Part shown: piece by piece, positions 803-28,674 of the stretch | Layout of the letters: every line of letters begins with the position of its first letter | Numbering within the stretch: the stretch's first letter is position 1 | Assembly: GCA_009991965.1 (NCBI GenBank) | Contig: JAACWQ010000003.1 | Span: 15,274-79,273 of the forward strand | DNA from: Minisyncoccota bacterium | GTDB lineage: Bacteria; Patescibacteriota; Microgenomatia; UBA1400; PJMF01 | Reading direction: 5' to 3' | Length of the DNA stretch: 64,000 nucleotides | Notes under the pieces: model-generated | Seen by the model: only the letters and a program-made list of their open reading frames with translations | Told to the model about the DNA's origin: nothing | Database searches by the model: none | Translations under genes and position numbers: made by a program

Positions 803-1159
803 ATGGCAGATTCTCAGTTGTCTATTGCGGATGTTTTTAAGCAATTTCGCGCACCGTTCATTGGTAATATTTTGATCATTTTGCTCCAAGTTAGCATTGC
901 TGTAGTCGCGATCAATATACTTCAGCCTGTCGTGCCTCTGTTTAATAATCAACTACTCGCAACTAACACCCTGATGCCAAAAATTTGGCTCGCACTCCTA
1001 CCAGCTCTATCGCTCATCTTTAGTCTCTTCAGCCTGCTGTTGATGTTATTCTCCCGCTCACTTGGCTCCACAATTCTCAATATTTTTGCTTGGAGCAGCA
1101 CAACGATCAACGGCATTCTATTACTCTCACTAGTACGAATAGTTCTTTTGGTAAAATAA
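803..1159 (+). CDS. Small 3-4 TM membrane protein; possibly a GtrA-like lipid-linked sugar translocase (weak)
   Basis: It is 118 aa and almost entirely hydrophobic helices. It lies between glycosyltransferase genes with 3 nt spacing. Confidence 0.3.
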   Translation: MADSQLSIADVFKQFRAPFIGNILIILLQVSIAVVAINILQPVVPLFNNQLLATNTLMPKIWLALLPALSLIFSLFSLLLMLFSRSLGSTILNIFAWSSTTINGILLLSLVRIVLLVK

Positions 1160-1161
1160 CT

Positions 1162-3185: not shown

Positions 3186-3188
3186 CTT

Positions 3189-7454: not shown

Positions 7455-7466
7455 GTTTGTATGATA

Positions 7467-8501
7467 TCAGACTGTAAAACCCATCGTTTTCATCAGAGAA
7501 ATAAGAGCAGCTTTCTCACCTTGCTGTGATACAAAATTTTCGACTGTTTCTCTCATTGATTGTGCGCGAACCATACTCGCACGAATATTGTTCTCAAACT
7601 GACAAAAATGTAGACGCATTTTATCTATTTCAGACTGACTAAGTTCGTTTTTCTCATTAAGTCGGTACATAAGTTTTTCAAATCGTAACGCTTGCCAAGC
7701 TACAAAACCTGGTTGGCCATCTAACCAATTCAACAACATATTTTTTACTTTAATACACTCAATTTCACTAATTGTTTCCAATCGCTTGGGATCCCGAAGA
7801 TTCTCATGTAATTCTCGACACTCCGCATCTCCTTCATTAAAAAAATCGCTTGCACTCTCCATCCCAGAAGTTGCTAGATCAGCTACTGCCATAATCAATG
7901 CGGGGCGAGGTATTTTATTTTCAGCTTCCAAAGCTTCATCAAAATGCGGTTGGGTAATGTACAACTCATCTCTGGTGCCACCTTCCCTCATTTCTCCGAT
8001 AGCTGCAATGAGTTTGGGATTATTTTCAAGTGCCTGTGCATAATATGGATAATCTGCAAACTTTGCCAACTTAAATTCTGGAAAAGTGAACTCAATCGCC
8101 AAAGTCACTACTCGTATGTCATCTTCTGTAAAGATTTCTACTTGTTTGTTGGCGTCACGCATGTGTTGTGCGACTGCCCGAGCACTTTGAGCCTCACTTC
8201 CTTCACTACCACTTGGCAAATCACTTGCTCGTGCCCCGCGGAAACGAGAAATTTGTTCTAATAATTCGCCTGAACTGGCATGCTGATACGACAACACTTT
8301 GTCGTGCCAAGCGATTGCAATCAAAGTCAAATATTGATCCTTGGACGAAACATCAATCGCTATAAGGATTTTCTCCATATGATGCACCACAGTGTCGAGA
8401 TGCAATGATTCATGATACTGTTTCGGATCTATTCCTCCCTCATCATGCTCCTCGCCGTGAATTTTAAATCCCGCCGCAATGATTCCTTCCGCTGTTGTCA
8501 T
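7467..8501 (-). CDS. Acidic hypothetical protein with a possible N-terminal HD-domain (H...HD) phosphohydrolase signature
   Basis: 'HLDTVVHHMEKIL' followed by '...IAIAWHDKV' fits the H / HD spacing of HD domains. It lies 12 nt upstream of the helicase-nuclease gene on the same strand. Confidence 0.3.
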   Translation of the reverse strand: MTTAEGIIAAGFKIHGEEHDEGGIDPKQYHESLHLDTVVHHMEKILIAIDVSSKDQYLTLIAIAWHDKVLSYQHASSGELLEQISRFRGARASDLPSGSEGSEAQSARAVAQHMRDANKQVEIFTEDDIRVVTLAIEFTFPEFKLAKFADYPYYAQALENNPKLIAAIGEMREGGTRDELYITQPHFDEALEAENKIPRPALIMAVADLATSGMESASDFFNEGDAECRELHENLRDPKRLETISEIECIKVKNMLLNWLDGQPGFVAWQALRFEKLMYRLNEKNELSQSEIDKMRLHFCQFENNIRASMVRAQSMRETVENFVSQQGEKAALISLMKTMGFTV

Positions 8502-8615
8502 AAACAGATTGGAAACTGCTTTATTCTCAGGTGCTAATAATTCAGTGATTGGTTCAGGCGTAGTAGGTATCCTTTATCAAAAGTATTGATTAGTCAATTA
8601 TTATCATAGCGGGAA

Positions 8616-8822
8616 TTATCGCCCTGATTTTATCTCTTGTTGCAAACGATCAATCTGCCGAGCTGCTCGCTCGCCGTCTTGTTTAAATCTGCTAGACAAT
8701 GGATCGGCACTGGCAAACTCTGCACGAGCCAATTGGCGGCGCTTGGCAATGGCGGATTTGAGGCGGGCTTCAAGGGCTTCTGCGCGGTGTTGGCCAAAGG
8801 TAGTGGGAGTAGAATCTGACAT
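8616..8822 (-). CDS. Small helical/coiled-coil hypothetical protein, GC-rich
   Basis: This is a 68 aa ORF starting at the internal Met (MSDSTPTT...). It lies immediately downstream of the HicA-like gene. Its composition is distinct from the AT-rich islet. Confidence 0.3.
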   Translation of the reverse strand: MSDSTPTTFGQHRAEALEARLKSAIAKRRQLARAEFASADPLSSRFKQDGERAARQIDRLQQEIKSGR

Positions 8823-8823
8823 T

Positions 8824-9078
8824 TCAACAACAATCTTTAATCTCTTTTTTACTAAAACCAAAACACATCAGCTCTCTCTCAATAATTTGATGCAAATTTC
8901 CATGTTCAAAATCATGGCGAGGAACCATAATAAATGGTCTCTGATTATCTACAATCGGCACTCTGCTTGGATGCCGATATTTATAATGACCACCCCGACC
9001 AGTCCCCACATCTAAAACAAAACCAAGACACTCAAGCACAGCCAATATCTTCTTTCTTTTTCTGGGAAGATTGCCCAT
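8824..9078 (-). CDS. HicA-family (YcfA-like) mRNA interferase toxin-like protein
   Basis: The pattern 'KILAVLECLGF...GRGGHYKYRHPS...IMVPRHD...GNLHQII' matches the HicA consensus (GSHH..HP...VPxH...GTL..I). It is 84 aa. Confidence 0.55.
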   Translation of the reverse strand: MGNLPRKRKKILAVLECLGFVLDVGTGRGGHYKYRHPSRVPIVDNQRPFIMVPRHDFEHGNLHQIIERELMCFGFSKKEIKDCC

Positions 9079-9084
9079 GAGATT

Positions 9085-9435
9085 CTAGGCGAAAGCCAAT
9101 CCTTTGGGATACACAAACTGTGTTTTTTTGCCTGGCTTCATGTTTCTTGGAAAAAAATGGTTTTCTGTATTCTTCGCTATATACCTCGGCACATCAAAAT
9201 AGGTGAAAATTGCGTCATTTACCAAATCTATAGTTGTCTGTTCATCATTAAGCGGAGCTATAACATATAAACCAGGATATTCTGCGGAGTTTATTAAAAA
9301 AGTTTTATTTTTTTTATCAATTTTTGTATCAAAATCTATACTACGCGGTAAAGGAAAGCTATATTTGGCACGCAAAATCTTGTACTGAATGTATTGCACA
9401 AATTCTGCTAGGTGTTCTTGAATTAAAATTAGCAT
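9085..9435 (-). CDS. Hypothetical cytoplasmic protein (islet gene)
   Basis: This is a 116 aa low-GC ORF with no recognisable motif. It lies 6 nt upstream of the HicA-like gene. Confidence 0.35.
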   Translation of the reverse strand: MLILIQEHLAEFVQYIQYKILRAKYSFPLPRSIDFDTKIDKKNKTFLINSAEYPGLYVIAPLNDEQTTIDLVNDAIFTYFDVPRYIAKNTENHFFPRNMKPGKKTQFVYPKGLAFA

Positions 9436-9512
9436 AAGTGGATTGTAACAAAATATTGGTTGTTTTAATACAAAGCAGAAGATTAGAGGCTGGGTGCTTA
9501 ATAAATAGAATT

Positions 9513-10109
9513 CTAGCGACCTCTGATATAGAGAATTATCCGCACAATAGTGCCAGAGATTTGCTCGTCACCAGCTTGTATCTGCAGTTTTTCTTGTGGA
9601 ATTTGGAAGGCATCGATCGCATATTTTCTAGAATCAGTATCAACAGCGGACCAATTCATGCCTCTACCTACTAAGCTATAGTCTCTGTTCGTATCATTAT
9701 ATTTTTGACCATTTACCACAAGCCTTCCCTGAGTATATTGGCCAAGTATCAGATATAAACTATACCAGTCATTTGAAAACTCATACTCAATTTTTGCTTG
9801 GTCACTTGGCCAGTTTGCTCGTAATTCATCAATCGTTCTGTTACTTTGAAAAACAGTTACGATCCCACAACGGGCATTGAACCACTCCCAACATTCTATA
9901 TTTTCGCCAGTGCCATATATTTTTTTTGACCCCAATGCTTCACGCAACAATATAACTTTTTGCTGCTCAGCTGTATGAAAGTTCATCCATAACTTACTTG
10001 GATTAGCAGGATAAGCAAATATATATACGCCTGCAACAAAAACCGCAAATAAAATTGCGGCTAAACAGCTAATACCTAGTATCAGTGTTACTTTTGATAG
10101 TAATTTCAT
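9513..10109 (-). CDS. Membrane-anchored (N-terminal TM) extracytoplasmic hypothetical protein
   Basis: It starts at 'MKLLSKVTLILGISCLAAILFAVFV', has a single N-terminal TM helix, then a Trp/Tyr-rich domain of about 170 aa. The gene is low GC. The ORF extends to 10154. Confidence 0.4.
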   Translation of the reverse strand: MKLLSKVTLILGISCLAAILFAVFVAGVYIFAYPANPSKLWMNFHTAEQQKVILLREALGSKKIYGTGENIECWEWFNARCGIVTVFQSNRTIDELRANWPSDQAKIEYEFSNDWYSLYLILGQYTQGRLVVNGQKYNDTNRDYSLVGRGMNWSAVDTDSRKYAIDAFQIPQEKLQIQAGDEQISGTIVRIILYIRGR

Positions 10110-10446
10110 TTGTCGGTGTTGTGAAATGAAATCATAACTGATATTCAGATACAAAAGCCTATAGCTTTAGACAGTGCTGATATAACCAAATTTAGTTTAA
10201 CTTAATTTTGAAAAATTGGAATAGTTAGTAAAATCCAATTGTTACCAAAATAGTCTTTAAAACCAAGTATCTAAATCAAAACGCTACTAACCTCAACTGA
10301 TATGTGAGCTTTTGACCTCCTTTTTTACTTTTTTTATACATTGTCTGTTCTGATAAAATTATTGACTTGATTTTCTATTTCTATAACTGTGCAAATGTAA
10401 GTATCCCAAAATTCTAAGTGCAAAACAAGTTGAATAATAAGCCTTG

Positions 10447-10520
10447 TCGGGGTGACAGGACTCGAACCTGCGATCTCGCGACCCCCAGCCGCGCATTCTA
10501 GCCATCTGAACTACACCCCG
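10447..10520 (-). tRNA. tRNA-Pro (anticodon GGG)
   Basis: Manual fold of the reverse complement: acceptor CGGGGUG/CACCCCG, D-arm GUUC..GAAU, anticodon stem CGCGG/UCGCG with loop CUGGGGG, T-arm GCAGG-UUCGAGU-CCUGU, discriminator A. CCA is not encoded. Confidence 0.85.
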
Positions 10521-10564
10521 TTTTGACCCGTTGCACAATTCTACACTTTACGTAAGAGTTGGAA

Positions 10565-10585
10565 TGTACTATACATCCTAGTACA
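10565..10585 (+). promoter_or_regulatory. Perfect inverted repeat TGTAC-N11-GTACA in the recA upstream region (candidate operator overlapping putative promoter elements)
   Basis: It sits about 55-75 nt upstream of the recA ATG, with a TATACA/TATAGT -10-like hexamer nearby. There is a GGAAC Shine-Dalgarno sequence before the ATG. Confidence 0.3.
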
Positions 10586-10640
10586 AAGTAATTATAGTAA
10601 AAAAACCCAAAAGTCACGCCTGCCAAGCAAAGGAACTATT

Positions 10641-11687
10641 ATGACAAAACTACCAATCAAAAAAGAAACTGTAGAAGCACCTGTAAGCGACGAACAGGCC
10701 GCAAAAAGACAGGCCGTTTCTATCGCTATGCAGCAAATTGAGAAAGAGTTTGGCAAAGGCTCGATTATGAAAATGGGCGACTCTCTCAAACACATGGCAA
10801 CCATGCCAGTGATCTCTTCTGGCTCCTTAGCACTCAACTTGGCCTTGGGTGTTGGTGGCTATCCCAAAGGCAGAATTATTGAAGTATATGGTCCAGAGGC
10901 ATCGGGCAAAACCACACTTTGTCTGCATGCAATTGCAGCTGTGCAAAAGCAAGGTGGCACCGCAGCCTTTGTAGACGTAGAGCACGCGCTTGATCCACAG
11001 CGCGCAAGAAGGATTGGCGTCAATCTTGATGAATTATTGATTTCACAACCAGACTATGGAGAACAAGCACTCGAGATTGCTGAGACGTTAATTCGCTCTG
11101 GAGGTGTGGATATTGTTGTTATCGACTCTGTCGCAGCCCTGGTGCCAAAATCAGAGATTGAGGGAGAAATGGGCGATGCCCAAATGGGCGTGCAAGCGCG
11201 ACTTATGTCTCAGGCTATGCGTAAATTGACCGCTGCTATCAGCAGAACCAATACACTGGTGATGTTTACCAATCAAATTCGGATGAAAATTGGTGTCATG
11301 TTTGGCAGTCCAGAAACAACCACTGGTGGTAATGCACTCAAATTTTATGCCACACAACGATTAGACATTCGCAAAATCGGCAACATCCAAGAAGGTGAAA
11401 AAGTCGTCGGCAGTCGTCACCGTGTTCGAGTTAAGAAAAATAAGGTTGCACCGCCATTCCAAGTGGCCGAGTTTGACATGGACGAAAATGGTATTTCCAT
11501 GACCGGAGATACAGTAGACATCGGTGCGCTAGAAAATGTTATAGAAAAGAGTGGCAGTTTCTATAAGTATGGTGGCGAGGTGCTTGCGCAAGGTCGTGAA
11601 GCGACCAAAGCATACCTGGCTGAACACCCAGATTTACTCAAGAAAATACAAAAAGAAATCTGGCAAAAAATTAAGCAGTCTGATTGA
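10641..11687 (+). CDS. recA: Recombinase RecA
   Basis: Walker A '[10 protein letters not shown]', '[10 protein letters not shown]' and '[21 protein letters not shown]' match RecA over its full length. Confidence 0.95.
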
Positions 11688-11896
11688 CTCGCTGCCACTT
11701 TGGCAGTACAATCGGAGGCACATTCCTACAAGAACGTAGAGAAAGTAAAAGTAAAAATTGTCCTTATGAATCAATACTTTGTGCCTATTCAACCCGCGCT
11801 AACCAAGTAACGTTCAGTCGTACTGCGCATTGATTCTCAATCTACTTTTATTTTTTCCTCTTGAGGTTTGTTATAGAAACACAGACAAGGAGTCTT

Positions 11897-13429
11897 ATGT
11901 CATTATTTAGTAATCTCTCGTCCCTCTTCGGGCCTCAGACGCAGCAGCAGCAAAATTTGAAAAAGCCAGCGGTGTCGGTGCCCCCAGTAACACCACTTGC
12001 ACGAAAGAAACAACAGCCAGCCCCCCAAGTAGACCGCAATTCACAAGATAAAGCTCGTGAGATCATCGTCGAAGCCAAAGCAGAAGCACTCGCTATTCGT
12101 AGCAAAGCTGAGCGCGATACACAAGAAAGTGCCAGAAATCTCGAAGATCAACAACGACAACTCAATCAGAAACTAGACCGCATTGACGAACGTCTCTCCA
12201 GTATGGACAAGCGAGAGCGTGATCTCGAAAAAAGTCGAGCGGATTTAGACACAGCGGCGCAGGATCTGAAACTCGAGCGCGATAAACTCACAAAAAAATT
12301 GGAGAGCGTTGCAGAATTAACCAGAGAAGAAGCACGTAAGTCGCTCTTCGCTGATCTCGATGAGCAGCTCAGCAAAGAGAAAGCTCGTTTTGTTCGACAA
12401 AAAGAAGAAGAGGCCAAAGAAGAAGCAGAAGGAAAGGTGCAAGAGATTTTGATCGATGCCATGAAACATGGCGCTACCGATTATGTGCCAGAGTACACCA
12501 TCTCCGTTGTCCAACTACCTTCCGAAGAAATCAAAGGCAAGATCATTGGCAAGTCCGGTCGAAACATCAATGCCTTCGAACACGAGACTGGCGTCGATGT
12601 CGACCTCGATACTTCACCAACCGAAGTTCGCCTCTCTTGTTTTGATCCCGTCCGAAGAGAAATTGCGCGCATTACCCTCGAGCGATTAATCAAAGATGGC
12701 CGTATCCAACCGACACGTATCGAAGAAGTGGTTGCAAAAGTACGACAAGAAATCGACAAAGTTACCTTTGAAGCTGGCAAAAAACTTTGCCACGATCTTG
12801 GCGTATATAACTTGCCAGTCGATCTTATGCGCATGTTGGGTAAGTTCAAGTTCCGATTCTCATACGGTCAAAATATGATTGCTCATACACTTGAAGAAAC
12901 AAAAATCGGTGTCAAGCTCGCGAGCGAACTTGGACTCGACGTCAACACCGTCAAACTCGGTTGTTTGCTGCACGACATTGGTAAAGTTTCAGAAGAGTCT
13001 GAAGGTAGTCACGTAGAGCTCGGTGTCAAAATTGCCGAACAATTCAAATTGCCACAGGCAGTGATTGATGGTATTGCGCAACACCATGAAGACGAGCCGT
13101 TCTCTGGTCCAGAGCAAGTACTTGTCTACATCGCTGATGCGATCTCTGGCGCCCGACCAGGCGCTCGCTACGAAAACTACGATGCATACGTCAAACGCTT
13201 ACAGCAGCTTGAGGAAATTGCGACCCAATACCCACAAGTTAAGCAGGCATACGCAATCCAAGCAGGGCGAGAGGTCCGCGTCATACTCATGCCAGAACAA
13301 TCGAAAGATGATGACGTGACTGTTCTGAGTTCAAAAATTCGAGATGAGATCAAGGCTAGCATGACTTATCCAGGTACTGTGACCGTTTCTGTTATCAGAG
13401 AAGTCAGAGGGCAAGCAGTCGCAACCTAA
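11897..13429 (+). CDS. rny: Ribonuclease Y
   Basis: It has an N-terminal TM/coiled-coil region, a KH domain (IIGKSGRNINAFE) and an HD domain (LLHDIGK). The AGGAG RBS before the ATG at 11897 is preferred over the ORF start at 11861. Confidence 0.9.
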   Translation: MSLFSNLSSLFGPQTQQQQNLKKPAVSVPPVTPLARKKQQPAPQVDRNSQDKAREIIVEAKAEALAIRSKAERDTQESARNLEDQQRQLNQKLDRIDERLSSMDKRERDLEKSRADLDTAAQDLKLERDKLTKKLESVAELTREEARKSLFADLDEQLSKEKARFVRQKEEEAKEEAEGKVQEILIDAMKHGATDYVPEYTISVVQLPSEEIKGKIIGKSGRNINAFEHETGVDVDLDTSPTEVRLSCFDPVRREIARITLERLIKDGRIQPTRIEEVVAKVRQEIDKVTFEAGKKLCHDLGVYNLPVDLMRMLGKFKFRFSYGQNMIAHTLEETKIGVKLASELGLDVNTVKLGCLLHDIGKVSEESEGSHVELGVKIAEQFKLPQAVIDGIAQHHEDEPFSGPEQVLVYIADAISGARPGARYENYDAYVKRLQQLEEIATQYPQVKQAYAIQAGREVRVILMPEQSKDDDVTVLSSKIRDEIKASMTYPGTVTVSVIREVRGQAVAT

Positions 13430-13458
13430 GCGTTGTGCGCTATACTAGAAAGTAGGGT

Positions 13459-13677
13459 ATGAAAGAATTTTGGCTCGCACTACAAGTAGTTGTTTCAATC
13501 TTTTTGATTGCAGCAATCCTCTTGCAAGCCCAAGACTCTGGTCTCGGAGCAACTTGGGGTGGCGGTGGTGAAACCTACCATACACGCAGGGGGTTGGAAA
13601 AAGTTCTGTTTTACCTGACAATAGCTGGAGTGGTTCTTTTTATTACCGCAGCCCTCGGGGTTGTATCCACTCGTTAG
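13459..13677 (+). CDS. secG: Preprotein translocase subunit SecG
   Basis: It is 72 aa with two TM helices and the 'LLQAQDSGLGATWGGGG' glycine-rich loop typical of SecG. Confidence 0.7.
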   Translation: MKEFWLALQVVVSIFLIAAILLQAQDSGLGATWGGGGETYHTRRGLEKVLFYLTIAGVVLFITAALGVVSTR

Positions 13678-13683
13678 ACATTT

Positions 13684-15087
13684 ATGCGCAAAGCGTACTG
13701 GTATTTGAGCGCGTACATCCGTAAACGCGGATTAATGGTTGTTGCTTCACTCGCGATAGCTATCGGATTTTTTTCTTTTGTCGTCCCTACCATCGCTACT
13801 CGACTAGAAAAGCGAGAACAATTTTATATTGGCATTATCGGTCAATACACCATTTATTCTTTGCCAGACATAGTAACTGATCAACTGAGTGTAGGACTCA
13901 CCGCCATAACCGGAAATGGTGGCGTGGTTCCCGTTTTAGCTAAACGCTGGGCAGTTGAACAAGGCGGGAAAACATACCGTTTTGTTCTCAAGGATGATCT
14001 CAAGTGGAGTGATGGAAGCAAGATCAAGCCAGAAGAAATTCAATTTAACCTCAAAGATACTACCGTTGCTACGACTGCGAATGATCTTATTTTCCAACTA
14101 CCTGCAGAATTTTCTCCCTTTCCTAGCCTGGTCGCGAAACCATTGCTGAAAATGTCGGAACAAAAAGTACCGTTTGCACGCAACAGACCACTCCCCGTTG
14201 GCATCGGCTCATATCGAATAAGTGATTACCATACACACAATAATCAACTCAAAGAGCTCGTCATTGATAGTGAAAAAGAACGATACATTTATCGTTTCTA
14301 CCAAACTGAGGAAGACGCAGAGACAGCGTTTAAACAGGGAAAAATTGACCTTTTGTTAGACTTGGTTCGGAAACATGAGATCTACGAGTGGCCAACCACA
14401 ACAACAACCAAGCGATTGAACGATAATCAATATGTTGCGCTCTTTTTTAATATGCAAGATCCACTGATGGCAAAAAATACTCGCCAAGTACTATCGTATA
14501 TAACAAGCAAACCAAGCGATGCTTCTCGAGCAATTGGGCCCATCAGTTCTAATTCTTGGGCATATCTATCGGGAGGAAAAGATTACGAAAAAGATTGGGA
14601 TCGAGCAGTCGAACGTTTGTTTGATGACGCCCCACAACTACCACTTATTTTTACCCTTACGACCACACAAACCTTTGCCGAACGAGCCGAGAGTATAAAA
14701 ACAGAATGGGAAGAATTTGGCGTCTACGCAGAGGAACAATGTGCGTCGGCAAAAGCAATAGAAAACAAAGACTTGTGCGCAAATATGCGCATCAAAGTAA
14801 CGCTAAAAATTTCTAACTTTCCCGACACCAATGACTTCCAACTGCTCCTCATCGGCCAAGAATCTCCTCCCGACCCTGACCAATATCATCTGTGGCACTC
14901 TGACCAAAACACCAACTTTACCCACTATAAAAATACGCGCATCGACAACTTGCTGGAAAAAGGCCGACAAACTTTTGAAGAGTCAGAGAGAAAACAAATC
15001 TATCAAGAATTTCAACAATTTATTCTCGAAGATCCTCCGGCAATTTTCTTGGAGCACTTGCTTACCTACGACGTCAGTCGTAAATAA
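13684..15087 (+). CDS. ABC transporter substrate-binding protein, family 5 (Opp/Dpp-like), membrane-anchored
   Basis: It has an N-terminal TM anchor. The family-5 SBP pattern 'GLTAITGNGGVVPVLAKRWAVEQGGKTYRFVLKDDLKWSDG' is present. Confidence 0.6.
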   Translation: MRKAYWYLSAYIRKRGLMVVASLAIAIGFFSFVVPTIATRLEKREQFYIGIIGQYTIYSLPDIVTDQLSVGLTAITGNGGVVPVLAKRWAVEQGGKTYRFVLKDDLKWSDGSKIKPEEIQFNLKDTTVATTANDLIFQLPAEFSPFPSLVAKPLLKMSEQKVPFARNRPLPVGIGSYRISDYHTHNNQLKELVIDSEKERYIYRFYQTEEDAETAFKQGKIDLLLDLVRKHEIYEWPTTTTTKRLNDNQYVALFFNMQDPLMAKNTRQVLSYITSKPSDASRAIGPISSNSWAYLSGGKDYEKDWDRAVERLFDDAPQLPLIFTLTTTQTFAERAESIKTEWEEFGVYAEEQCASAKAIENKDLCANMRIKVTLKISNFPDTNDFQLLLIGQESPPDPDQYHLWHSDQNTNFTHYKNTRIDNLLEKGRQTFEESERKQIYQEFQQFILEDPPAIFLEHLLTYDVSRK

Positions 15088-17340
15088 TCAGAGATGTCTG
15101 CGCCATTTGCGGAAAAGCTCAAACGCACGCGTCATCCAATACCATTGTGTCAGCGGAATATCTTGTGCTTCTAGGTACTGTACTTCTCTGCCCCCAAATC
15201 CGCGCTTGAAGAGCGATACGCCTGCAAAACGATGCGCATCCATACCTGGAGGCGCCACGCCCCACAGATTGTAACTCGTACAACCAGCTTGTTGTGCTTC
15301 AGCAATCACGCGCCACTGTACTGCGTACGCACCAGGCAACTTGCCATTTTCTGGTGTCGAAATACCATAGTGGTACACCGCCTGCTTGTGATACGTCAGC
15401 ACAAATGCGGTCGCCAACAATTGTGTGCCCTGATATGCAGAAACCAAGAAGGCCTGATTTTCTTGTGCAAAAATCTGGAACTGTTCAAATAAAAATTTGT
15501 AACTAAACGGCACAAAGTGATGTCGCTCTGCCACCAATCGCTGTTGTTCATAAAAATTTTGAATGTCCTTGGGATCGCGCGAAACTTCTGTTCGAATACC
15601 TTCGCCCTCCGTCTTTCTAATTGCTGAGCGAGTATTTTTCCGCATGCCTGCCAGAAGCTGCTCCTCACTTTGAGTAATATCTATTTCAATTGTCCGATCA
15701 GCCGTTACATGCATAGCTGCTTTGAGCGTGCCGAGCCGCGCGACTTCTGCGCGAGCTATTTCGTCGTCTACCAGCTGTGGACGAAAACGAATAAATGAGC
15801 AGTGTTGCTGCCGGACAATAGTTTTTATCTCAGAAAACATTGCTGCTACTGCCCGAGGTTCATCCCAATCGAGCACCGGACCACCAGGAAAGCTGCAGTA
15901 CGAGCCACGCCGAGCACGCTCAAAAATGCCGAGTGCTACTCCAGTCAACGATCCATTTCGATATAACCCAAGGCGAATAATTTTATTCCCCAGCCGTTCT
16001 TGAAATACCCCCCAATGCCAAGATTGTAGAAAGTTTGCCTCTGGACGATCAGCAATCCAGTTCTCCCAGATCTCTTTGTCGATAACTTCTTGAACCATGT
16101 ATTCAGGTGCTTTCTCGAGCAATTGCAGAATAGTTGTGGCCAATCGAACCGCGGTTGCCACACTCACTTGCGCATGAGTTGGAAGGGTGAAAACTGAGCG
16201 AGCAAGTTTCTCTGCTTGTGAACACGAACCAGAGTGATAGGCAGAATCCCAAACCACACTCCCACTATCAACTGCTGCGCGATACCAGCGGTCAGTGAGA
16301 TAAAAGTTGCTCTTTTTCAGATCAGCCGCTAATTGATCTGGATCTTGGACCACCAGCGGAACACGCAGAAGTGAATAAGGGCTTGTTTGCAAATCTGGAG
16401 CGAGTAAGTATTTTTTGAGTAGGCGAGCGTACACCGTCGCAATCAATGTCCGATGGTTCAACTGAGACGGCAAACGCCCCAACTGTTCCAAAACTAATTT
16501 TGCCTGGCCAACTGAGAGCTTTTCCAACACTAGAGTCATGCGGAGCACGGGGGTTGTGATAATACCGAGCTTCTGCGCTCCACGCTGCAGTACTTTACCT
16601 ATACCGAGTGAAAACGTTGCGCGAATAGAAACAGTTAGTAGCGGATACACAGCCTGTCGCCAAGTACTTCGTGAGCGTAATTGTTGCGGAGCTCGTTCAG
16701 TAGCAAGTAAACCCTGACGAAAAAGGCAGCAACCGCCAGCAACCGCATCAATTATTTTGTCTCGCCCAAATGATGTAACTAGTACATGGCCAAAACTTCC
16801 AAGCCGCCCGCCCGACGGCGCTACGCCACCAAACGCTTGCGCCAAATCTTCTATGAGCAGGAGACCGCGTTCGTCACACCAAGTGCGAATTGCTGCGACA
16901 TCAGCGGGATATCCTAACAAATGTTGGACCAAAACGACTTTTGCTTCTGGATTTTTTTCATATGCAGTTTGTAGTGTTGTGACATCTAGGTTGGGCGAAT
17001 GCTCACCGATATCGACAAATGCGGGCAGCATGTTGGCACCAATGATCGCCTCTTCTATTGCTGCACAGCTGAATGCTTGAGTCAGTACTTTCGTTCCTGG
17101 AGTGATCGGCAAGTTCTGCAGTGCAAATTGGATTGCATCTCTCCCCGTTGCAAAAAAATGGGGTTTAGAAAAATCAGGAAAGATCTCTTGTAACTTCTCG
17201 GCTAGCAAAGCTTGTGTTTCGGCACTATTAGGAGGAAATACGTACCACCAGAGTGTCTGACATGCGAACGTAAAAGAGTAGTTGGAGCCAAGACTGCCAA
17301 ACACTGGCTTGTTTTTTTTCATAGTATCTTTACTAGCCAC
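15088..17340 (-). CDS. Bifunctional protein: N-terminal DegT/DnrJ/EryC1-type PLP aminotransferase domain fused to a C-terminal FemAB-family (aminoacyl-tRNA-dependent) transferase domain
   Basis: The N-terminal roughly 330 aa match the DegT pattern (GRDAIQFAL...AFVDIG...LIEDLAQAFGG...VTSFGRDKII, with the Lys). The C-terminal roughly 420 aa match FemAB ('FLQSWHWGVFQE', 'GMRKNTRSAIRK', 'AYAVQWRVIAEAQQAGCTSYNLWGV'). Confidence 0.7.
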   Translation of the reverse strand: MASKDTMKKNKPVFGSLGSNYSFTFACQTLWWYVFPPNSAETQALLAEKLQEIFPDFSKPHFFATGRDAIQFALQNLPITPGTKVLTQAFSCAAIEEAIIGANMLPAFVDIGEHSPNLDVTTLQTAYEKNPEAKVVLVQHLLGYPADVAAIRTWCDERGLLLIEDLAQAFGGVAPSGGRLGSFGHVLVTSFGRDKIIDAVAGGCCLFRQGLLATERAPQQLRSRSTWRQAVYPLLTVSIRATFSLGIGKVLQRGAQKLGIITTPVLRMTLVLEKLSVGQAKLVLEQLGRLPSQLNHRTLIATVYARLLKKYLLAPDLQTSPYSLLRVPLVVQDPDQLAADLKKSNFYLTDRWYRAAVDSGSVVWDSAYHSGSCSQAEKLARSVFTLPTHAQVSVATAVRLATTILQLLEKAPEYMVQEVIDKEIWENWIADRPEANFLQSWHWGVFQERLGNKIIRLGLYRNGSLTGVALGIFERARRGSYCSFPGGPVLDWDEPRAVAAMFSEIKTIVRQQHCSFIRFRPQLVDDEIARAEVARLGTLKAAMHVTADRTIEIDITQSEEQLLAGMRKNTRSAIRKTEGEGIRTEVSRDPKDIQNFYEQQRLVAERHHFVPFSYKFLFEQFQIFAQENQAFLVSAYQGTQLLATAFVLTYHKQAVYHYGISTPENGKLPGAYAVQWRVIAEAQQAGCTSYNLWGVAPPGMDAHRFAGVSLFKRGFGGREVQYLEAQDIPLTQWYWMTRAFELFRKWRRHL

Positions 17341-18728
17341 TGTGGCATCCGCCCTTCAACTAATACTACCGTGTCTGCAGAAAGTGTCTGTATTCGCTGC
17401 AGTATTTCTGCTCTACTCGCAAACAATGTTGTAGCGAATTGTTTTGCAAATGCTTGTTTGCCAGCTTCCCCAAGATACCAAACTTCGCTGACATAGGCCG
17501 TAGCTTCGTGCGCCAGCTTGGTGTGCACTTTTCCTGATTCTGTTCCCAAGTCGATAATACCAGAGGTAAGTAAGATTTTTCTTGGAGCGACTTGCTGTCC
17601 AAGCAACTGCAATGCAGCCGAAAAACCATCTGGATTGCTCGTGCCCCCATCATCGATAATACGTGTGCCCGATTTTGTTGTACGCGTACGGATCCATTTT
17701 TCAGTGGGGACAAATGACTCCAGGCGAGTAGTAATTTGCTTCTCAGACAGGCCAAAATTTTGTGCTACAGCACGTACCGCCCGTATTGTATTTCCATAGT
17801 GATCACCAATGATTGCTGTTGTCACCTTTGGACCCTTGGCCAACCAAGTTTTTTCTACCTGCAGGGAGGCATGATTTTTAACCGCAGCAACAATCTTCAA
17901 AGCAGATTCATTGACACAATATACTTTCGCTTTTTCTGGCAGTGCTTCAAGCAACTCAGCTTTTGCCTGTGCAATTCTTTCTTGTGATCCAAAAAGCTCA
18001 AGATGTTGTTTTCCTAGCCCCGTCAGAATCGCAAGATCTGGTGGCAATACTGCAGTTAATCGAGCAATTTCTCCCGGACAATACGCTGCGTACTCCAAGA
18101 CCAATGTCTTAGCTGTTCCCAAATTTTTTAGTAAATAACGTGCAATTCCCAGTGCGGTATTGACTGATCCAGGCGTCGTACAAACACTCCCTCGCTCAGC
18201 TAAAACATGAGCCAACAATTGTTTGGTTGTTGTTTTACCGAAACTGCCAGTAATTCCAATTATGAAAACTTTTTTTGCGCGCAACAGATCCCGTACGCGA
18301 TGAAGATAATACGTCGTGAGTAACCAAACGACCCCATTCATGGCAATCGCCAAAAACAACAAAACTACCGGTGTGAAGAAATAGAGCAACACAGGTAATA
18401 CAAATAAACGACCTACTACCAAGGCTGGCACCGCAGTCAGCCAAGGGATTAACAGGTAGATGCTCAAAGTAACAAACAATAAACAGGAAACCAGCAGAAG
18501 CTTGACCCGCAGCGTTTTTACCGGACGCTTAAAAGTCATTGGTCGAACGAGGGCTAGAGAAGGCAGCAAATGTAAAATAACTTGACGACCAGAGAGTGAG
18601 TTCAGGTGTGCGTGCAGACGATCAAGTCGATACTCTTTTTGTTGTAGCAAACCAGACCACCATAGTAGCCCTGCGAAAAAATGTATCGACCAGCCAAACA
18701 AATAAAAAAGAAAAATTACGCTAAGCAT
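17319..18728 (-). CDS. MurF-like Mur-ligase (central and C-terminal domains) with an N-terminal polytopic membrane domain in place of the UDP-binding domain
   Basis: 'IIGITGSFGKTTTKQLLA', 'NTALGIA', 'DDGGTSNPDGF' (MurF-type DDSYNAN region) and 'LVEGRM' are present. The first roughly 150 aa contain 4-5 predicted TM helices. Confidence 0.7.
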   Translation of the reverse strand: MLSVIFLFYLFGWSIHFFAGLLWWSGLLQQKEYRLDRLHAHLNSLSGRQVILHLLPSLALVRPMTFKRPVKTLRVKLLLVSCLLFVTLSIYLLIPWLTAVPALVVGRLFVLPVLLYFFTPVVLLFLAIAMNGVVWLLTTYYLHRVRDLLRAKKVFIIGITGSFGKTTTKQLLAHVLAERGSVCTTPGSVNTALGIARYLLKNLGTAKTLVLEYAAYCPGEIARLTAVLPPDLAILTGLGKQHLELFGSQERIAQAKAELLEALPEKAKVYCVNESALKIVAAVKNHASLQVEKTWLAKGPKVTTAIIGDHYGNTIRAVRAVAQNFGLSEKQITTRLESFVPTEKWIRTRTTKSGTRIIDDGGTSNPDGFSAALQLLGQQVAPRKILLTSGIIDLGTESGKVHTKLAHEATAYVSEVWYLGEAGKQAFAKQFATTLFASRAEILQRIQTLSADTVVLVEGRMPQWLVKIL

Positions 18729-19467
18729 GTACTGCCTCTAGGATAAGCGCAGCGACTTTTTCTGGGTGGGTAAATGGCGACCCGTGTCTCGCGCCTGTAA
18801 TTAGTTGCAGCTTAGCATTTGGGATCCCCGCAAGCAGCCGATCGGCAAACTCCATCGGAGTAATGTTGTCATTTTCTCCCCAGATTACGGTGGTCGGAGC
18901 AACAATGTTTTTGAGCTCAGAATCGACCTCATGCTCGATCACTCTACGCATCGTTTCACGCATCATCGTATTTGCTTCTAGGTAATCTCGCTCGCCCGCC
19001 ATTCTATGTAGTAGCTGGCGTAGTGTGCCAGAAGTTGACAGTTTCTTTCCAAGTTTTGCCAAATGATAAAAGCCGTTTCGTTTTAATCGAGCAGAGAGGC
19101 TGTGGGAGCGAAAACCAGCGCTAGAGATTAAAATTAATGTTTGCACTTGCTGAGGAAAACGTGCGGCGTATGTAGTAGCCAGGTGTCCACCAAATGAGTG
19201 ACCAACGAGAACAAAATTTTGCTTGCCAACCAGCTGCTGCAAAAGCCACTGGACATATTCATCAACTCCCCAGGGCTGCTCGAGCGGTAATTCAAAACCA
19301 GGTAGTTTTAAAACAGATGCACGGACACCAGCCTCCTGTAGTAACCGAACTACTGGCTGCCACTTGGCGCTGGGAGCTGCGTCTCTTGACCATCCGTGGA
19401 GAATAATGACTTCTGGCGCTGTACTCGACATACCACCATTATACGCACCTCTAGAGCAAAAACGCAC
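18721..19467 (-). CDS. Alpha/beta-fold hydrolase
   Basis: The nucleophile elbow 'VGHSFGGH' is present. The His is in the C-terminal 'GARHGSP'. It overlaps the MurF-like start by 8 nt. Confidence 0.6.
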   Translation of the reverse strand: MRFCSRGAYNGGMSSTAPEVIILHGWSRDAAPSAKWQPVVRLLQEAGVRASVLKLPGFELPLEQPWGVDEYVQWLLQQLVGKQNFVLVGHSFGGHLATTYAARFPQQVQTLILISSAGFRSHSLSARLKRNGFYHLAKLGKKLSTSGTLRQLLHRMAGERDYLEANTMMRETMRRVIEHEVDSELKNIVAPTTVIWGENDNITPMEFADRLLAGIPNAKLQLITGARHGSPFTHPEKVAALILEAVHA

Positions 19468-20250: not shown

Positions 20251-22308
20251 GTGAGTCCAGCAGATTTCGCTGCAGGCTGGTGGCGCTTGCGACATCGTGG
20301 TGATGATGCCTGGGGATTGCTTACAAGGTCTGGTCAAATCACCCAACTTGAGCACGTACAAGCGTCAAATGGTAGCAGTCCCATACACGATCTAAGAAAC
20401 ATCCATACAGCTGCTAACTTGCGCGTCGCTCATGATCGCTACGTGACGAGTGGTCCACGTAGACCAGAAAATGCCCAACCATTTTTCCTTTCCGACGGAG
20501 CATTCACGTTGGGACTGGCACACAATGGAAATCTCCCAGTTGCAGTTGTTCAGCGCCTGCGCGAGCTACTGCACAAACCGTTGCCAGTTATCGCCAGCGA
20601 CTCTTGGGTGATGACCCAGTTTCTTCTCGAGTCGAGACAGAAGTATAAAACGTGGGAGGAGACATTTGTTGCCATGTTGCCACTCTTGCAAGGGGCATTT
20701 TCTTTGGCTTGCTTGACGGATGAAAATGTCATCTACGCCATCCGTGACCCTTGGGAAATCCGCCCACTCTGCCTAGGCAGGAAAAATGAAACTTGGGTCG
20801 TAGCGTCAGAAAGCGTAGCACTTGCCAATATGGGAGCCCAGTACGTTCGTGAGGTAGAACCTGGCGAAATAGTCCGACTAAATCCAGATGGGAGCAGCGG
20901 ATCGACGCTGTATGCCCAAGCCGACGAGCGACGCTGCGTGTTGGAAACAATTTACTTTTCGAAAAATGAGAGTGTTCATGACGGACAGACTATTCGAGAG
21001 CAGCGCAGGCGACTGGGAGAACTAGTCGGAGCTCGATTTAAAGAGAAAAAAATTGCCATTGATTGTGTGATTCCCATCTTAAACTCTGGCAAGCAAATGT
21101 CGATTGGGGTATCACACGCCCTAGAGATGGATAATACAGAAGCCATTAGTATTGCAACAGAGCTACGCTCATTTATTCAAAATACTCCCACCGCAAGAAC
21201 AGAAATAGTCAATCAAAAACATGTCGTTGATGGTGGTTATATCCAAGGCAAACGTATTCTCCTCTGTGACGACTCGCTGGTACGCGGAACCTCGCTAAGC
21301 GCTCTATTGGCAAAAATTCGTGAGCATAATCCAGCAGAGATTCACATTGTGCTTGGATCAGAACCAGTGGTAGACATCTGCGAATGGGGTATTGATTTGC
21401 CAACACGCGAAGAGCTTTTTGTTTTTCAGCTGCTGCAAACAAGACCTGACTGGAACAATACTGAAGAATACGAGGCATGGCTCTCCAAAGTAGAGCATCT
21501 GGTTGCAAAAAAACTCGGAGTAGATTCAGTGACCTACCTTGATAGAACCTCAGTCAATAAAGCACTCAAACGATCGGAAAATCAGCTCTGCCGACACTGC
21601 TTTGGTGGATCAGATCCTATCGAAAATAATCCCCCAACATATCGAGTGGAGCACTTGGAAGCTTTACGCAAGCAAAAAGTGCTGTTTTTTGCATCCGGTA
21701 GTGGCACCAACGTCGAGAATGTTTTGCAGCAGATGCAGGACGGGAAAATTCTTGCCAAACCAATTGGGGTAGTAACCAATAAACGGGACGGCGGAGTGAT
21801 GGATAGGGCCAGAGCATTTGGAGTCGAAACAACAGTTTTTTCTGCCAAGACATACGAACTAGATATTCTTTCATTTATAGTTTCACACCCAGAGGGGATT
21901 CCTGACGTAATCGTGCTAGCCGGATGGATGCGCATACTGTCTGATGAATTTCTCGAAAAGATAGAAAAACTTGGCGTGACAATCGTCAACCTGCATCCAG
22001 CACTCCTCTCTGGAAAAGGAGCGGGTTTTGTTGCTACCGCAGCAGGACGCGTGCCCGAACTACGAGGGGCCGATGTTATAGAACAAGCGCATCAAAAACC
22101 TCTTGCAGAAATGCCAGTTACGGGCGCAACGGTACATCAGGTGCTTCCAGCCCACAAGGTTGATACGGGCAGAGTTATTATCAAAGAGGAAGTAGCACGT
22201 CGTGAGGATGAAACGTTAGCTGAGCTTACGGCTCGAATACACAAGGCTGAGTATCGTATACTGCCAATTGCAATACAACGGATATTGCTAGAACGTTTGA
22301 AAGTATGA
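20251..22308 (+). CDS. Fusion of amidophosphoribosyltransferase (PurF: Ntn glutaminase + PRTase) with phosphoribosylglycinamide formyltransferase (PurN-like). The annotated GTG start is probably downstream of the true N-terminus.
   Basis: PurF motifs: 'LRHRGDDAWGL', 'QPFFLSDGAFTLGLAHNGNL', 'WVVASESVAL', 'LLCDDSLVRGTS'. PurN motifs: 'VLFFASGSGTNVENVL', 'VIVLAGWMRILS', 'NLHPALL'. The in-frame upstream extension encodes 'HCGVLATCG', which matches the PurF N-terminal catalytic Cys. Confidence 0.75.
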   Translation: MSPADFAAGWWRLRHRGDDAWGLLTRSGQITQLEHVQASNGSSPIHDLRNIHTAANLRVAHDRYVTSGPRRPENAQPFFLSDGAFTLGLAHNGNLPVAVVQRLRELLHKPLPVIASDSWVMTQFLLESRQKYKTWEETFVAMLPLLQGAFSLACLTDENVIYAIRDPWEIRPLCLGRKNETWVVASESVALANMGAQYVREVEPGEIVRLNPDGSSGSTLYAQADERRCVLETIYFSKNESVHDGQTIREQRRRLGELVGARFKEKKIAIDCVIPILNSGKQMSIGVSHALEMDNTEAISIATELRSFIQNTPTARTEIVNQKHVVDGGYIQGKRILLCDDSLVRGTSLSALLAKIREHNPAEIHIVLGSEPVVDICEWGIDLPTREELFVFQLLQTRPDWNNTEEYEAWLSKVEHLVAKKLGVDSVTYLDRTSVNKALKRSENQLCRHCFGGSDPIENNPPTYRVEHLEALRKQKVLFFASGSGTNVENVLQQMQDGKILAKPIGVVTNKRDGGVMDRARAFGVETTVFSAKTYELDILSFIVSHPEGIPDVIVLAGWMRILSDEFLEKIEKLGVTIVNLHPALLSGKGAGFVATAAGRVPELRGADVIEQAHQKPLAEMPVTGATVHQVLPAHKVDTGRVIIKEEVARREDETLAELTARIHKAEYRILPIAIQRILLERLKV

Positions 22309-25631: not shown

Positions 25632-26561
25632 GTGTTTATGATTCGATTTCAAGACGTCTCGAAAGAGTTCTCGCCTAACAAGTTTGGTGTCAAGCAAATT
25701 AGCTTCGCTGTCGACAATGGTGAGTTTGTTTTTATTACTGGAACATCGGGTAGTGGCAAAACTACGCTCATGCGTCTCATCATCCGTGAGTACGCGCCTA
25801 CCTCTGGAGAGGTATCACTGTTCAATGAGCAGTTGGCAACAATGTCACAAAAAAAAGTGTCAGAACTACGTCGTAAAATTGGTGTGGTATTTCAAGATTA
25901 CAAATTGCTGCCAGAATTAAACGTCTGGGAAAACATCGCACTTCCCCTCGAAATTGTTGGACAACCGCAGGCAGAAATTGAAAGCCGCGTAACCGATTTA
26001 CTAAAGCTGATTGGTTTGATTGAAAAACCCTACCTCTTCCCTTCTCAACTTTCTGGCGGCGAAGCGCAACGAGTTGGTATTGCTCGAGCGCTTGCACTTG
26101 GACCTGAGCTTATTTTTGCTGATGAGCCAACAGGCAACCTTGACGCCGAAAACACCCAGGCTATTGTCGATTTATTAAAGAAAATAAATCAGCTGGGCAC
26201 CACAGTTTTGTTTGCTACACACGACCTGAGTTTAACCAAAGCAGGACAAATCAGAATCCTTAATCTTGATGCCGGCTCGCTCATCCACGACTCAAAACCA
26301 AAAAGCACGGCTACTCCAGCCGTCAAAAAAGTTGTCACGCCACCAGAAAGTAAACCCACGATTACAGCTAAAAAGAAAAGTTGGCTTGGAAAGCTCTTTA
26401 CAAAACCGGAACAAACAACAAAAAAACCAGTTGAGAATCCAGTCGAAAAACCAGAAAACCAACCAAGGAAAAAGAAGGAAGAGAAAAAATCAAAAAAAGA
26501 AAAAGCCACGAGTAAAAAAGTCACCAAACAAGTAGTAACTTCACAGGAAGCCCTGGAGTAA
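25632..26561 (+). CDS. ftsE: Cell-division ABC ATPase FtsE with a roughly 90 aa Lys/Pro/Glu-rich C-terminal tail
   Basis: Walker A '[11 protein letters not shown]', signature '[15 protein letters not shown]' and Walker B '[11 protein letters not shown]' are present. It is immediately followed by ftsX. Confidence 0.85.
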
Positions 26562-26564
26562 CCT

Positions 26565-27437: not shown

Positions 27438-27447
27438 GTTTTTAGCT

Positions 27448-28626: not shown

Positions 28627-28674
28627 ATTTATCTCGCTACACTTCCCGTCATCTTCGGCACATAAACTCAATGT

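Follow-up and report, generated by a model that had tools for sequence, protein, structure and literature searches.

A membrane-anchored MurF-type ligase encoded with a hydrolase and a DegT::FemAB fusion protein in Patescibacteria

MurF is known from textbooks as a soluble enzyme of the cytoplasm and is a target for antibiotics. Canonical MurF proteins (UDP-MurNAc-tripeptide:D-Ala-D-Ala ligases such as E. coli 1GG4, T. maritima 3ZL8, and A. baumannii 4QF5) have a central ATP-binding domain and a C-terminal domain, with a P-loop, conserved His, Glu, and Lys residues, and a DDxxxxNP motif. They also have a soluble N-domain of about 80 amino acids (aa), which binds the UDP end of the substrate. 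This report concerns an operon of three genes found in a 64,000-nucleotide stretch of contig JAACWQ010000003.1 from a Minisyncoccota (Patescibacteria) bacterium, referred to here as the window. The genes encode an alpha/beta hydrolase (ABH), a MurF-type ligase, and a fusion of a DegT-type pyridoxal phosphate (PLP) enzyme with a FemAB-type (Fem) transferase. The ligase has the same central and C-terminal domains and motifs as canonical MurF, and its membrane-type orthologs hold the same slot upstream of mraY. It differs from canonical MurF in its N-terminal part, where a domain of 150-200 aa with three transmembrane (TM) helices (or a larger domain) and invariant motifs stands in place of the UDP-binding domain. 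Unlike canonical murF, its gene is nearly always translationally coupled to an ABH gene.

We consider this to be, probably, the murF locus of Patescibacteria (the candidate phyla radiation, CPR), a four-function peptidoglycan-precursor operon acting between MurE and MraY, in which Fem would acylate the precursor while DegT and the hydrolase would tailor it. The substrates and the order of steps proposed below are predictions; they are built on the domain identities, the intact catalytic residues, the operon structure, its conservation, its position in the division and cell wall (dcw) cluster, and the replacement of the N-domain. This radiation of very abundant, little-studied bacteria, which holds a substantial fraction of bacterial diversity, appears to use a MurF whose substrate-recognition head has been swapped for a membrane domain.

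Several described systems resemble parts of this locus. MurT, of the lipid II isoglutaminyl synthase MurT/GatD, is a Mur-family ligase without the N-domain and is strictly specific for bactoprenol-bound precursors (PMC3266927). Like the ligase described here, it is encoded beside a hydrolase-type partner and lacks a nucleotide-binding N-domain; MurT/GatD acts at the membrane stage (PMC3266927). The likeness is in architecture only, since MurT is soluble, has a DUF1727 C-domain, and has a glutaminase as its partner. Among the Fem transferases, FemX of Weissella viridescens (UDP-MurNAc-pentapeptide:L-Ala transferase) and FemX, FemA, and FemB of S. aureus have the same fold, FemAB motifs, and peptidoglycan gene context as the Fem described here. 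Both Weissella FemX and this Fem are about 335-340 aa long and have no coiled-coil insert. The identity to characterised FemX is about 17%, however, and the Fem described here is always accompanied by a DegT-type PLP enzyme, to which it is fused in the window. To our knowledge, a fusion to DegT is not known for any characterised Fem transferase.

The amide synthases of the Sbb17/Orf11 type from the streptothricin class (PDB 9WQW-9WQY) also have a Fem-like fold and transfer an acyl group from aminoacyl-tRNA to the amine of an amino sugar; they match CPR Fem proteins with E = 3.5e-8 to 4e-5. They differ in being found in actinobacterial secondary-metabolite clusters and not in a dcw-embedded housekeeping operon, and streptothricin-type genes are absent here. 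The sugar aminotransferases of the DegT/DnrJ/EryC1/StrS family (e.g., ArnB, PglE, PseC, perosamine synthase, and WbpE) have in common with the DegT domain the fold-type I PLP architecture, the Lys in SFxxxK, and the Asp of EDxAQ. The module described here differs from theirs in its context, which is murF and mraY and not a polysaccharide locus, and in having no linked enzyme that forms a keto sugar.

In the databases these proteins carry generic labels ("Mur ligase family protein" or "MurF", "DegT... aminotransferase" or "perosamine synthetase", and "FemA/FemB family"). No description of a membrane-anchored MurF, of its N-domain, or of an association of DegT, Fem, and hydrolase with murF was found in the literature, nor any of DegT or Fem in CPR cell walls. 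Transmembrane forms go unmentioned in a 2023 survey of Mur chimeras, and CPR genome papers state only that the peptidoglycan genes are complete. The original prediction, a reading of the DNA alone, had not recognised the combination as a described pathway, and the literature search likewise found none. All components belong to known superfamilies; what is new is the domain that MurF has on its substrate side, together with a PLP enzyme that has no explained place in the synthesis of the peptidoglycan precursor.

The ligase and its membrane N-domain

Profile, sequence, and fold comparisons of the ligase all give MurF as the best match, in agreement with the MurF type assigned by the original prediction. 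The ligase matches PF08245 at 90 bits (cut-off 24) and PF02875 at 40.3 bits (cut-off 28.4), and has no match to PF01225, the N-domain family. Its best NCBIfam match is TIGR01143 murF with 173.8 bits, where the alignment begins at profile position 72. The other Mur models score lower (murD 61, murC 46, murE 34, and MurT 15-19 bits), and the ligase is closer to MurF than to MurC, MurD, MurE, MurT, Mpl, CphA, or FolC. Its PDB sequence matches obtained with phmmer are led by MurF (3zl8, 2.7e-27), and its ten best PDB matches obtained with Foldseek are all MurF. With MurF structures it aligns from the P-loop onward only. Several members of the family are named MurF by PGAP and JGI. An assignment to the MurT type fails; the MurT models remain far below their cut-off of 800 bits, and the partner is ABH and not a class-I glutaminase.

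The region before the P-loop is a membrane domain. The AlphaFold model of the ligase (predicted local distance difference test, pLDDT, 90.4; predicted template modelling score, pTM, 0.86) and hydropathy agree on the layout TM1 at residues 2-30, TM2 at 73-97, and TM3 from 101 to about 126. It had been predicted that a membrane domain of four to five helices replaces the UDP-binding domain. The replacement is supported by the lack of a PF01225 match, the model, and hydropathy, while the number of helices is three. The confident three-helix model and the missing PF01225 match also dispose of the possibility that an ordinary N-domain was misread as TM helices. TM3 runs unbroken as a stalk to residue 152 and into the first strand of the P-loop/ATP-binding domain. 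TM1 and TM2 are joined by a 40-residue loop that contains the QQKEYRLDR and KRPxxTxR motifs and is strongly basic; by the positive-inside rule, this loop is therefore expected to be cytoplasmic, on the same side as the catalytic domains.

Alignments of the N-domain span Pacebacteria, Parcubacteria, Peregrinibacteria, and one Anaerolineae member. Residues Q29, R37, and T72 are invariant in them, and E32, R34, D36, P69, and P120 are conserved in at least 90%. When 1.84 billion representatives were searched with a profile of the domain, it matched 916 clusters (50% identity). In all of these clusters the domain is N-terminal, in a single architecture, within proteins of 460-550 aa. It has no match in Pfam or NCBIfam and constitutes a separate, new conserved domain. 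Because its polar residues are invariant and the 916 clusters have one architecture, the N-domain is judged, from these sequence comparisons, to be functional.

The murF slot and conservation of the four-gene module

The place of the orthologs in the genome bears on the identity of the ligase. The window locus is not in the dcw cluster; it has been shifted from dcw into a synteny block specific to Microgenomates, where genes for a peptidyl-prolyl isomerase, a DUF4012 protein, and a release factor flank it at one end and those for SBP_bac_5, SecG, RNase Y, and RecA at the other end. Four other loci (L040, L046, L047, and L052) have, inside a dcw cluster, an ortholog that shares its N-domain motif. 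In L040 and L046, the ligase (motif WQ[VI]KEYRLDR) is part of a textbook dcw cluster, FtsI-MurE-(PgeF)-MurC-MurA-nucleotidyltransferase-(GNAT)-ligase-MraY-FtsW-MurG-FtsA-FtsZ, at the murF position directly upstream of mraY. In the two Levybacteria loci L047 and L052, all four genes exist between glmU/glmS/murA genes and mraY. The order in L047, whose MraY is 97% identical to a Levybacteria protein, is MurA-nucleotidyltransferase-LbH acetyltransferase-ABH-ligase-DegT-Fem-MraY, so that the whole module is in the murF slot. The order in L052, on a 431-kb contig, is MurB-MurA-GlmU-x-GlmS-ABH-ligase-DegT-Fem-MraY-FtsW-MurG-x-FtsA-FtsZ. A Parcubacteria contig opens with Fem immediately before MraY. 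A search of MraY homologs, which gave L052 and this contig as dcw-embedded examples, found none on the long contigs that carry the relocated module. Orthologs of the ligase also adjoin FtsI, MurA, MraY, or MurG at L023, L034, L043, L051, and L053; the first four of these loci include WWE3 and Staskawiczbacteria.

No other MurF is found in these dcw and cell-wall clusters, for which stretches of about 20 kb were read per genome. Because the orthologs fill the dcw position of murF and these clusters have no further MurF, the membrane ligase is most likely, on this sequence evidence, the MurF ortholog of the lineage and its housekeeping MurF, not an exotic paralog. The original prediction had implied that the ligase is an unusual addition to a canonical murF in the cytoplasm, which is at odds, in related Patescibacteria, with the same ligase type occupying the dcw murF slot as the cluster's single MurF.

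The module as a whole is conserved. GTDB species representatives were scanned with the N-domain pattern Q[QVI]KE[YW]R[LI]DR, which gave 39 Patescibacteria species loci. Of these, 32 have all four genes in the order ABH, membrane ligase, DegT, Fem, so conservation in related genomes, which had been proposed as a check, is found. The remaining seven comprise four loci that are cut by contig ends and are consistent with the order, one without the hydrolase, and two with the ligase alone. Taking all searches together, more than 40 independent loci have the same gene order, far more than chance would give. It is found in Microgenomates, in one Peribacter (Peregrinibacteria), in one Colwellbacteria (Parcubacteria), and in one Anaerolineae contig, with unrelated flanks. 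Chance or inherited synteny alone was rejected as an explanation, as the order is kept with wholly different flanks in Peribacter, Colwellbacteria, Anaerolineae, and Levybacteria. In the window, the overlaps between module genes are 4-8 nt. DegT and Fem are jointly present or jointly absent in every locus examined. Beyond the module, the only neighbours that recur are dcw genes and those that reflect synteny within a lineage.

Outside Patescibacteria, the minimal conserved pair is ABH and the ligase. Relatives of the membrane ligase in Alphaproteobacteria (L010:8001-11668 and L011:1-5448) keep the hydrolase and are without DegT and Fem. One alphaproteobacterial locus is an operon of a Ddl-like gene, ABH, and the ligase, in which the Ddl-family gene scores 222 bits, just below the cut-off; a Ddl-family gene ahead of the pair fits a ligase that uses D-Ala-D-Ala. 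The other alphaproteobacterial pair adjoins murC and murB.

Some lineages have variants of the module. In Staskawiczbacteria (L043, about 6250-12390) the order is ABH-Fem-ligase-DegT-x-Fem, and two Fem genes are what would be expected if a longer side chain is built. Small ORFs (open reading frames) without a family match are inserted within the module in some lineages (L007:12895-13323, 142 aa; L003:7792-8001, 69 aa). In Peribacter, MurL (UDP-MurNAc-L-Ala-L-Glu epimerase) and a MurD-type ligase are encoded 3 kb upstream of the module (L007:3923-6590), which suggests a route to D-Glu in which L-Glu is added and then epimerised.

The dcw clusters themselves have other unusual genes. MurE in the Levybacteria-like clusters is 400-412 aa long and has no N-terminal UDP-binding domain, the murE profile being matched from about position 69. 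This short MurE is still above the cut-off for MurE of the diaminopimelate type, and the L047 protein has EDPR instead of DNPR. MurC in the same clusters retains a normal N-domain. GlmU-like functions exist inside dcw at L046:6661-7864, L047:5875-7252, and L052:1755-3008, split into a nucleotidyltransferase and a separate protein in L046 (a GNAT) and in L047 (an LbH protein), and in fused form in L052. The gene after Fem in L023 (about 11900-14100) encodes a 725-aa Glycos_transf_4-cluster protein of about twice the length of MraY, which may be MraY fused to another dcw protein.

Gene layout and the partner enzymes

Reading of the ORFs confirms that the three genes (ABH, the MurF-like ligase with its membrane N-domain, and DegT::FemAB) lie on the minus strand at the coordinates originally given, with all catalytic motifs intact (Table 1). 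The predicted 8-nt overlap of hydrolase and ligase is also present, as ATGCTTAG read directly from the sequence. The predicted 22-nt overlap of ligase and fusion, however, stems from the maximal GTG-start ORF. The likely start of the fusion is an ATG six codons inside that ORF, and the NCBI product has the corresponding 744 aa; with this start, the overlap is the 4-nt ATGA. A 4-nt overlap of ligase and DegT genes is also seen in the homologous loci L001, L008, and L009, and the ATGA overlap is a translational coupling of the ligase and DegT::Fem genes. Inside the operon there are no promoter-like or terminator-like signals above the shuffled expectation. A co-transcribed envelope operon, as had been proposed, is thus supported. 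A phmmer search against all six-frame ORFs of the window finds no second Mur ligase, DegT, or Fem.

Table 1. Coordinates of the operon features in the window and of the short murE genes in homologous loci
Feature	Position	Strand	Remarks
Alpha/beta-fold serine hydrolase (ABH), operon gene 1	18721..19467	-	248-aa ORF
Junction ATGCTTAG, ligase start overlapping hydrolase stop by 8 nt	18721..18728	-	Sequence read directly
MurF-type ligase	17319..18728	-	469 aa; Mur_ligase_M and Mur_ligase_C only
Membrane N-domain of ligase, residues 1-152	18273..18728	-	AlphaFold model, hydropathy
QQKEYRLDR motif, residues 29-37, right after TM1, family signature	18618..18644	-	Alignments
MurF-type ATP-dependent ligase body	17319..18272	-	P-loop GITGSFGKTTTK in central domain; DDGGTSNP in C-terminal domain
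ATGA junction, ligase stop overlapping DegT::Fem start	17319..17322	-	Sequence read directly
DegT::FemAB fusion	15088..17340 (maximal GTG-start ORF)	-	750 aa
DegT/DnrJ/EryC1-type PLP domain, residues 1-402 of 744-aa product	16117..17322	-	PF01041
FemAB/FemX-type aminoacyl-tRNA-dependent transferase domain, residues ~408-744 and stop codon	15088..16101	-	PF02388, PF13480
Truncated-type MurE genes	L040:3251-4453, L046:1932-3170, L047:1240-2445		

The hydrolase matches Abhydrolase_1 (70.7 bits) and Abhydrolase_6 (67.8 bits) of Pfam above their cut-offs, which confirms the predicted alpha/beta hydrolase with its GHSFGG motif. It reaches the cut-off of no specific subfamily model in NCBIfam. The nucleophile is Ser91 in GHSFGG (codon 19195-19197), and the triad Ser91/Asp200/His228 and the HGW oxyanion motif are conserved in at least 95% of 42 orthologs. 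The nearest solved relative is a metagenomic carboxylesterase (5jd6, E = 3e-21); the others are generic esterases and C-C hydrolases, uninformative on the substrate. The hydrolase may start at ATG 19431, giving 236 aa. A perfect TATAAT is found 6 nt upstream of this ATG (window 19431-19445, minus strand), in a divergent intergenic region of 36-72 bp common to the ABH and cyclophilin genes. The transcript of the operon may be leaderless; a consensus scan reports no full sigma-70 promoter upstream of the hydrolase.

Both domains of the fusion and the PLP Lys, as predicted from the sequence, are borne out by Pfam matches and by alignment with solved DegT enzymes. In the numbering of the 750-aa ORF, DegT_DnrJ_EryC1 (PF01041) is matched at 119.5 bits (cut-off 19.8) over residues 65-401. 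The PLP Schiff-base Lys is K195 in SFGRDK (codon 16756-16758), and it aligns with that of the solved enzymes 4qgr and 2oga together with the PLP-binding Asp D165 (EDxAQA). SFGRDK and E164-D165 are conserved in at least 95% of 41 orthologs, and K195 and D165 are at least 95% conserved or invariant in 41-44 orthologs. None of the characterised DegT subfamilies (PseC, LegC, RfbH, WecE, ArnB, and DesI) reaches its equivalog cut-off, the best being PseC with 77.4 vs 423.5 bits. The Foldseek neighbours of the domain are ArnB-like proteins, PglE, KabA, and perosamine synthase. Its C-terminal half is divergent, with about 55 inserted aa, and a set of residues is invariant in this family in particular (R61, C86, D104, R291, Y298, DRWY, and LPTH).

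The Fem domain has a double-GNAT fold. It matches PF02388 at 113 bits (cut-off 24) from residue 422, and PF13480 at 50.4 bits. Its PDB matches are FemX 6snr, FemA 1lrz, and Weissella FemX, and the structural template modelling score (TM-score) is 0.81 to Weissella FemX (root mean square deviation 3.3 A) and 0.72 to S. aureus FemX. The score against the FemX equivalog NF047883 (UDP-MurNAc-pentapeptide-Lys N6-alanyltransferase) is 45.6 bits, below the cut-off of 500. The domain resembles the stem-peptide enzyme FemX and the amino-sugar-acylating Sbb17 about equally, and its similarity is too low for a reliable mapping of the acceptor-binding residues of Weissella FemX. The motifs MRKNTR and FKxGFGG are conserved in at least 95% of 39 orthologs.

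The fusion is predicted to fold compactly, with about 5 residues linking its two domains (pLDDT 92.7, pTM 0.88). The window protein is 100% identical to one from a Candidatus Pacebacteria MAG. The fusion is found in 13 protein clusters of 35-100% identity, and such independent clusters rule out an assembly or frameshift artefact. Separate adjacent genes for DegT (about 415 aa) and Fem (about 340 aa) are much commoner, and the fusion is a local peculiarity of one Pacebacteria subclade. As the catalytic residues of the hydrolase, DegT, and Fem are conserved across about 40 orthologs, all of these enzymes are expected to be active. A role as degenerate, non-catalytic scaffolds was ruled out, as these residues are all conserved in at least 95%.

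Proposed role, alternatives, and other genes of the window

In the peptidoglycan-precursor scheme, the central and C-terminal domains of the ligase would use ATP to add the terminal dipeptide (presumably D-Ala-D-Ala) to the stem tripeptide. Because the basic loop of the N-domain is placed at the membrane surface, on the side of the catalytic domains, the three-helix domain would tether this ligation at the membrane beside MraY. The QQKEYRLDR/KRPxxTxR loop could plausibly take on the binding of the diphosphate end of the substrate. Fem would acylate a free amine of the precursor from aminoacyl-tRNA, most simply that of the diamino acid at position 3, to give a branched precursor; the context of murF and mraY favours a peptidoglycan precursor as its acceptor. 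DegT may carry out amino-group chemistry on the same precursor. It could supply the amine on which Fem acts, or it could modify the free alpha-amine of the residue that Fem has added. The serine hydrolase is predicted to be an active partner assisting the membrane MurF. If this is true, a specific and testable wall modification is predicted for Patescibacteria, whose wall chemistry is essentially unknown, and about 900 protein clusters labelled "hypothetical" or "Mur ligase family" gain a function. It would also correct labels such as "perosamine synthetase" that are taken as a sign of amino-sugar pathways, and would bear on how epibiotic ultra-small bacteria build or protect their wall while on a host.

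Several points weigh against this scheme. Enzymes of the DegT family normally need a keto sugar supplied by a dehydratase or dehydrogenase, and the module has no linked enzyme that would make one: across 48 loci, no 4,6-dehydratase or 3-dehydrogenase recurs within 8-10 kb on either side. We know of no peptidoglycan pathway with a DegT-type enzyme. Stand-alone CPR Fem proteins match the amino-sugar-acylating Sbb17 about as well as FemX. The murF score of the ligase is under the curated cut-off (173.8 vs 288.6 bits), as are those of the membrane-type orthologs resident in dcw (228-232 bits). The module-bearing genomes may have a second, canonical murF outside the stretches of about 20 kb that were read. 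The alphaproteobacterial ABH-ligase pair probably coexists with a canonical MurF, which would make it possible for members of the family to be paralogs as well. Finally, the closely related Levybacteria-like L040 and L046 have the membrane MurF without ABH, DegT, and Fem at the locus; these three are therefore not required for MurF function as such. By the identity of MraY (64-74%) and MurA (55-63%), these two loci and L047 and L052, which have all three partners, are about equally related. ABH, DegT, and Fem are thus gained or lost as a set around a constant membrane MurF, a pattern typical of tailoring and not of core ligation.

The original prediction had suggested the aminoacylation of a 4-amino sugar or a branched stem peptide, and the first of these, an amino-sugar route, is an alternative. 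DegT would aminate a nucleotide-linked keto sugar and Fem would aminoacylate the new amine, yielding a UDP-(aminoacyl)amino sugar for a modified peptidoglycan sugar or a unit of another wall glycopolymer, while MurF and ABH would merely be co-regulated neighbours acting on another molecule. The characterised relatives of the DegT domain all act on sugar or inositol carbons, and an amine that is made and then acylated is the simplest logic for the order of DegT and Fem in the fusion. There is a solved precedent in Sbb17, a Fem-like, aminoacyl-tRNA-dependent enzyme that acylates the amino sugar streptothrisamine and whose match to CPR Fem (E = 3.5e-8) is near that of FemX (1.2e-9). The want of a recurrent 4,6-dehydratase or dehydrogenase near the module counts against this route as well, however, and the position of the module inside the dcw murF slot (murA/glmU to mraY) is hard to explain for an unrelated glycopolymer. 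The Fem domain also has the size and fold of Weissella FemX. We regard the amino-sugar route as unlikely.

Two further alternatives concern the ligase. It may act on undecaprenyl-linked MurNAc-tripeptide (lipid I or II) instead of UDP-MurNAc-tripeptide, in which case the last peptide steps would have moved to the membrane, in parallel to MurT/GatD. The conserved Arg/Lys motifs of the cytoplasmic loop at the membrane surface are consistent with such a substrate, as is the MurE without a UDP-binding N-domain in Levybacteria-like dcw clusters. MurT, likewise without an N-domain, uses precursors only when they are bound to bactoprenol and does not accept UDP-MurNAc-pentapeptide (PMC3266927). Tethering alone, with channelling to MraY, explains the anchor equally well and more economically, however; the ligase gene is ahead of mraY, as in the canonical pathway, and MurC has a normal N-domain. 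Completion of the peptide on the lipid carrier thus appears quite improbable. Less likely still, and in our judgement very doubtful, is a paralog with another function. The membrane ligase would then be an additional MurF-like enzyme working with the hydrolase in analogy to GatD/MurT. It would attach a different amine or peptide to some component of the wall or membrane, or would repair or recycle precursors, and a canonical MurF would be encoded elsewhere. Alphaproteobacteria normally have a canonical murF, and their ABH-ligase pair would fit such a paralog, as would the score below the murF cut-off and the resemblance of a hydrolase-type partner and an N-domain-less Mur ligase to GatD/MurT. 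At least four Patescibacteria dcw clusters have the ligase exactly at the murF position with no other MurF there, however, the genomes of about 1 Mb have little space for redundancy, and the MurT models reach only 15-19 bits. Unlikely, in our estimate, is also the far-reaching proposition that in Patescibacteria and some Chloroflexi and Alphaproteobacteria the N-domain of a membrane MurF recognises MurNAc-tripeptide linked to a lipid diphosphate, so that this MurF and the serine hydrolase finish the stem peptide while it is on the lipid carrier. DegT-Fem would then install an amine and aminoacylate it from tRNA, which would be a chemically new, lineage-wide peptidoglycan modification.

Other genes of the window, all on the plus strand, are noted here. 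Three consecutive genes at 1090-4457 encode a WecA-like GT4 phospho-sugar transferase, a decaprenyl-phosphate phosphoribosyltransferase (UbiA family, above the NF008978 cut-off), and a PMT-like GT-C glycosyltransferase; this trio looks like a cassette for a lipid-linked glycopolymer of the arabinan/decaprenylphosphoryl arabinose (DPA) type. The Glycos_transf_4 gene at 1090-2217 was considered as MraY and rejected. Because it is WecA-like and not MraY, it gives no information on a relocated murF in the genome of the window. A 685-aa protein (20251-22308) has a PurF-like glutamine amidotransferase/phosphoribosyltransferase and a PurN-like formyltransferase domain, and is an unusual fusion of steps one and three of purine synthesis. 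FtsE, FtsX, an M23 peptidase, and a lamin-tail-domain protein are encoded at 25632-29814, after the DUF4012 and release factor genes. This block, for cell division and wall hydrolysis, is syntenic across Microgenomates.

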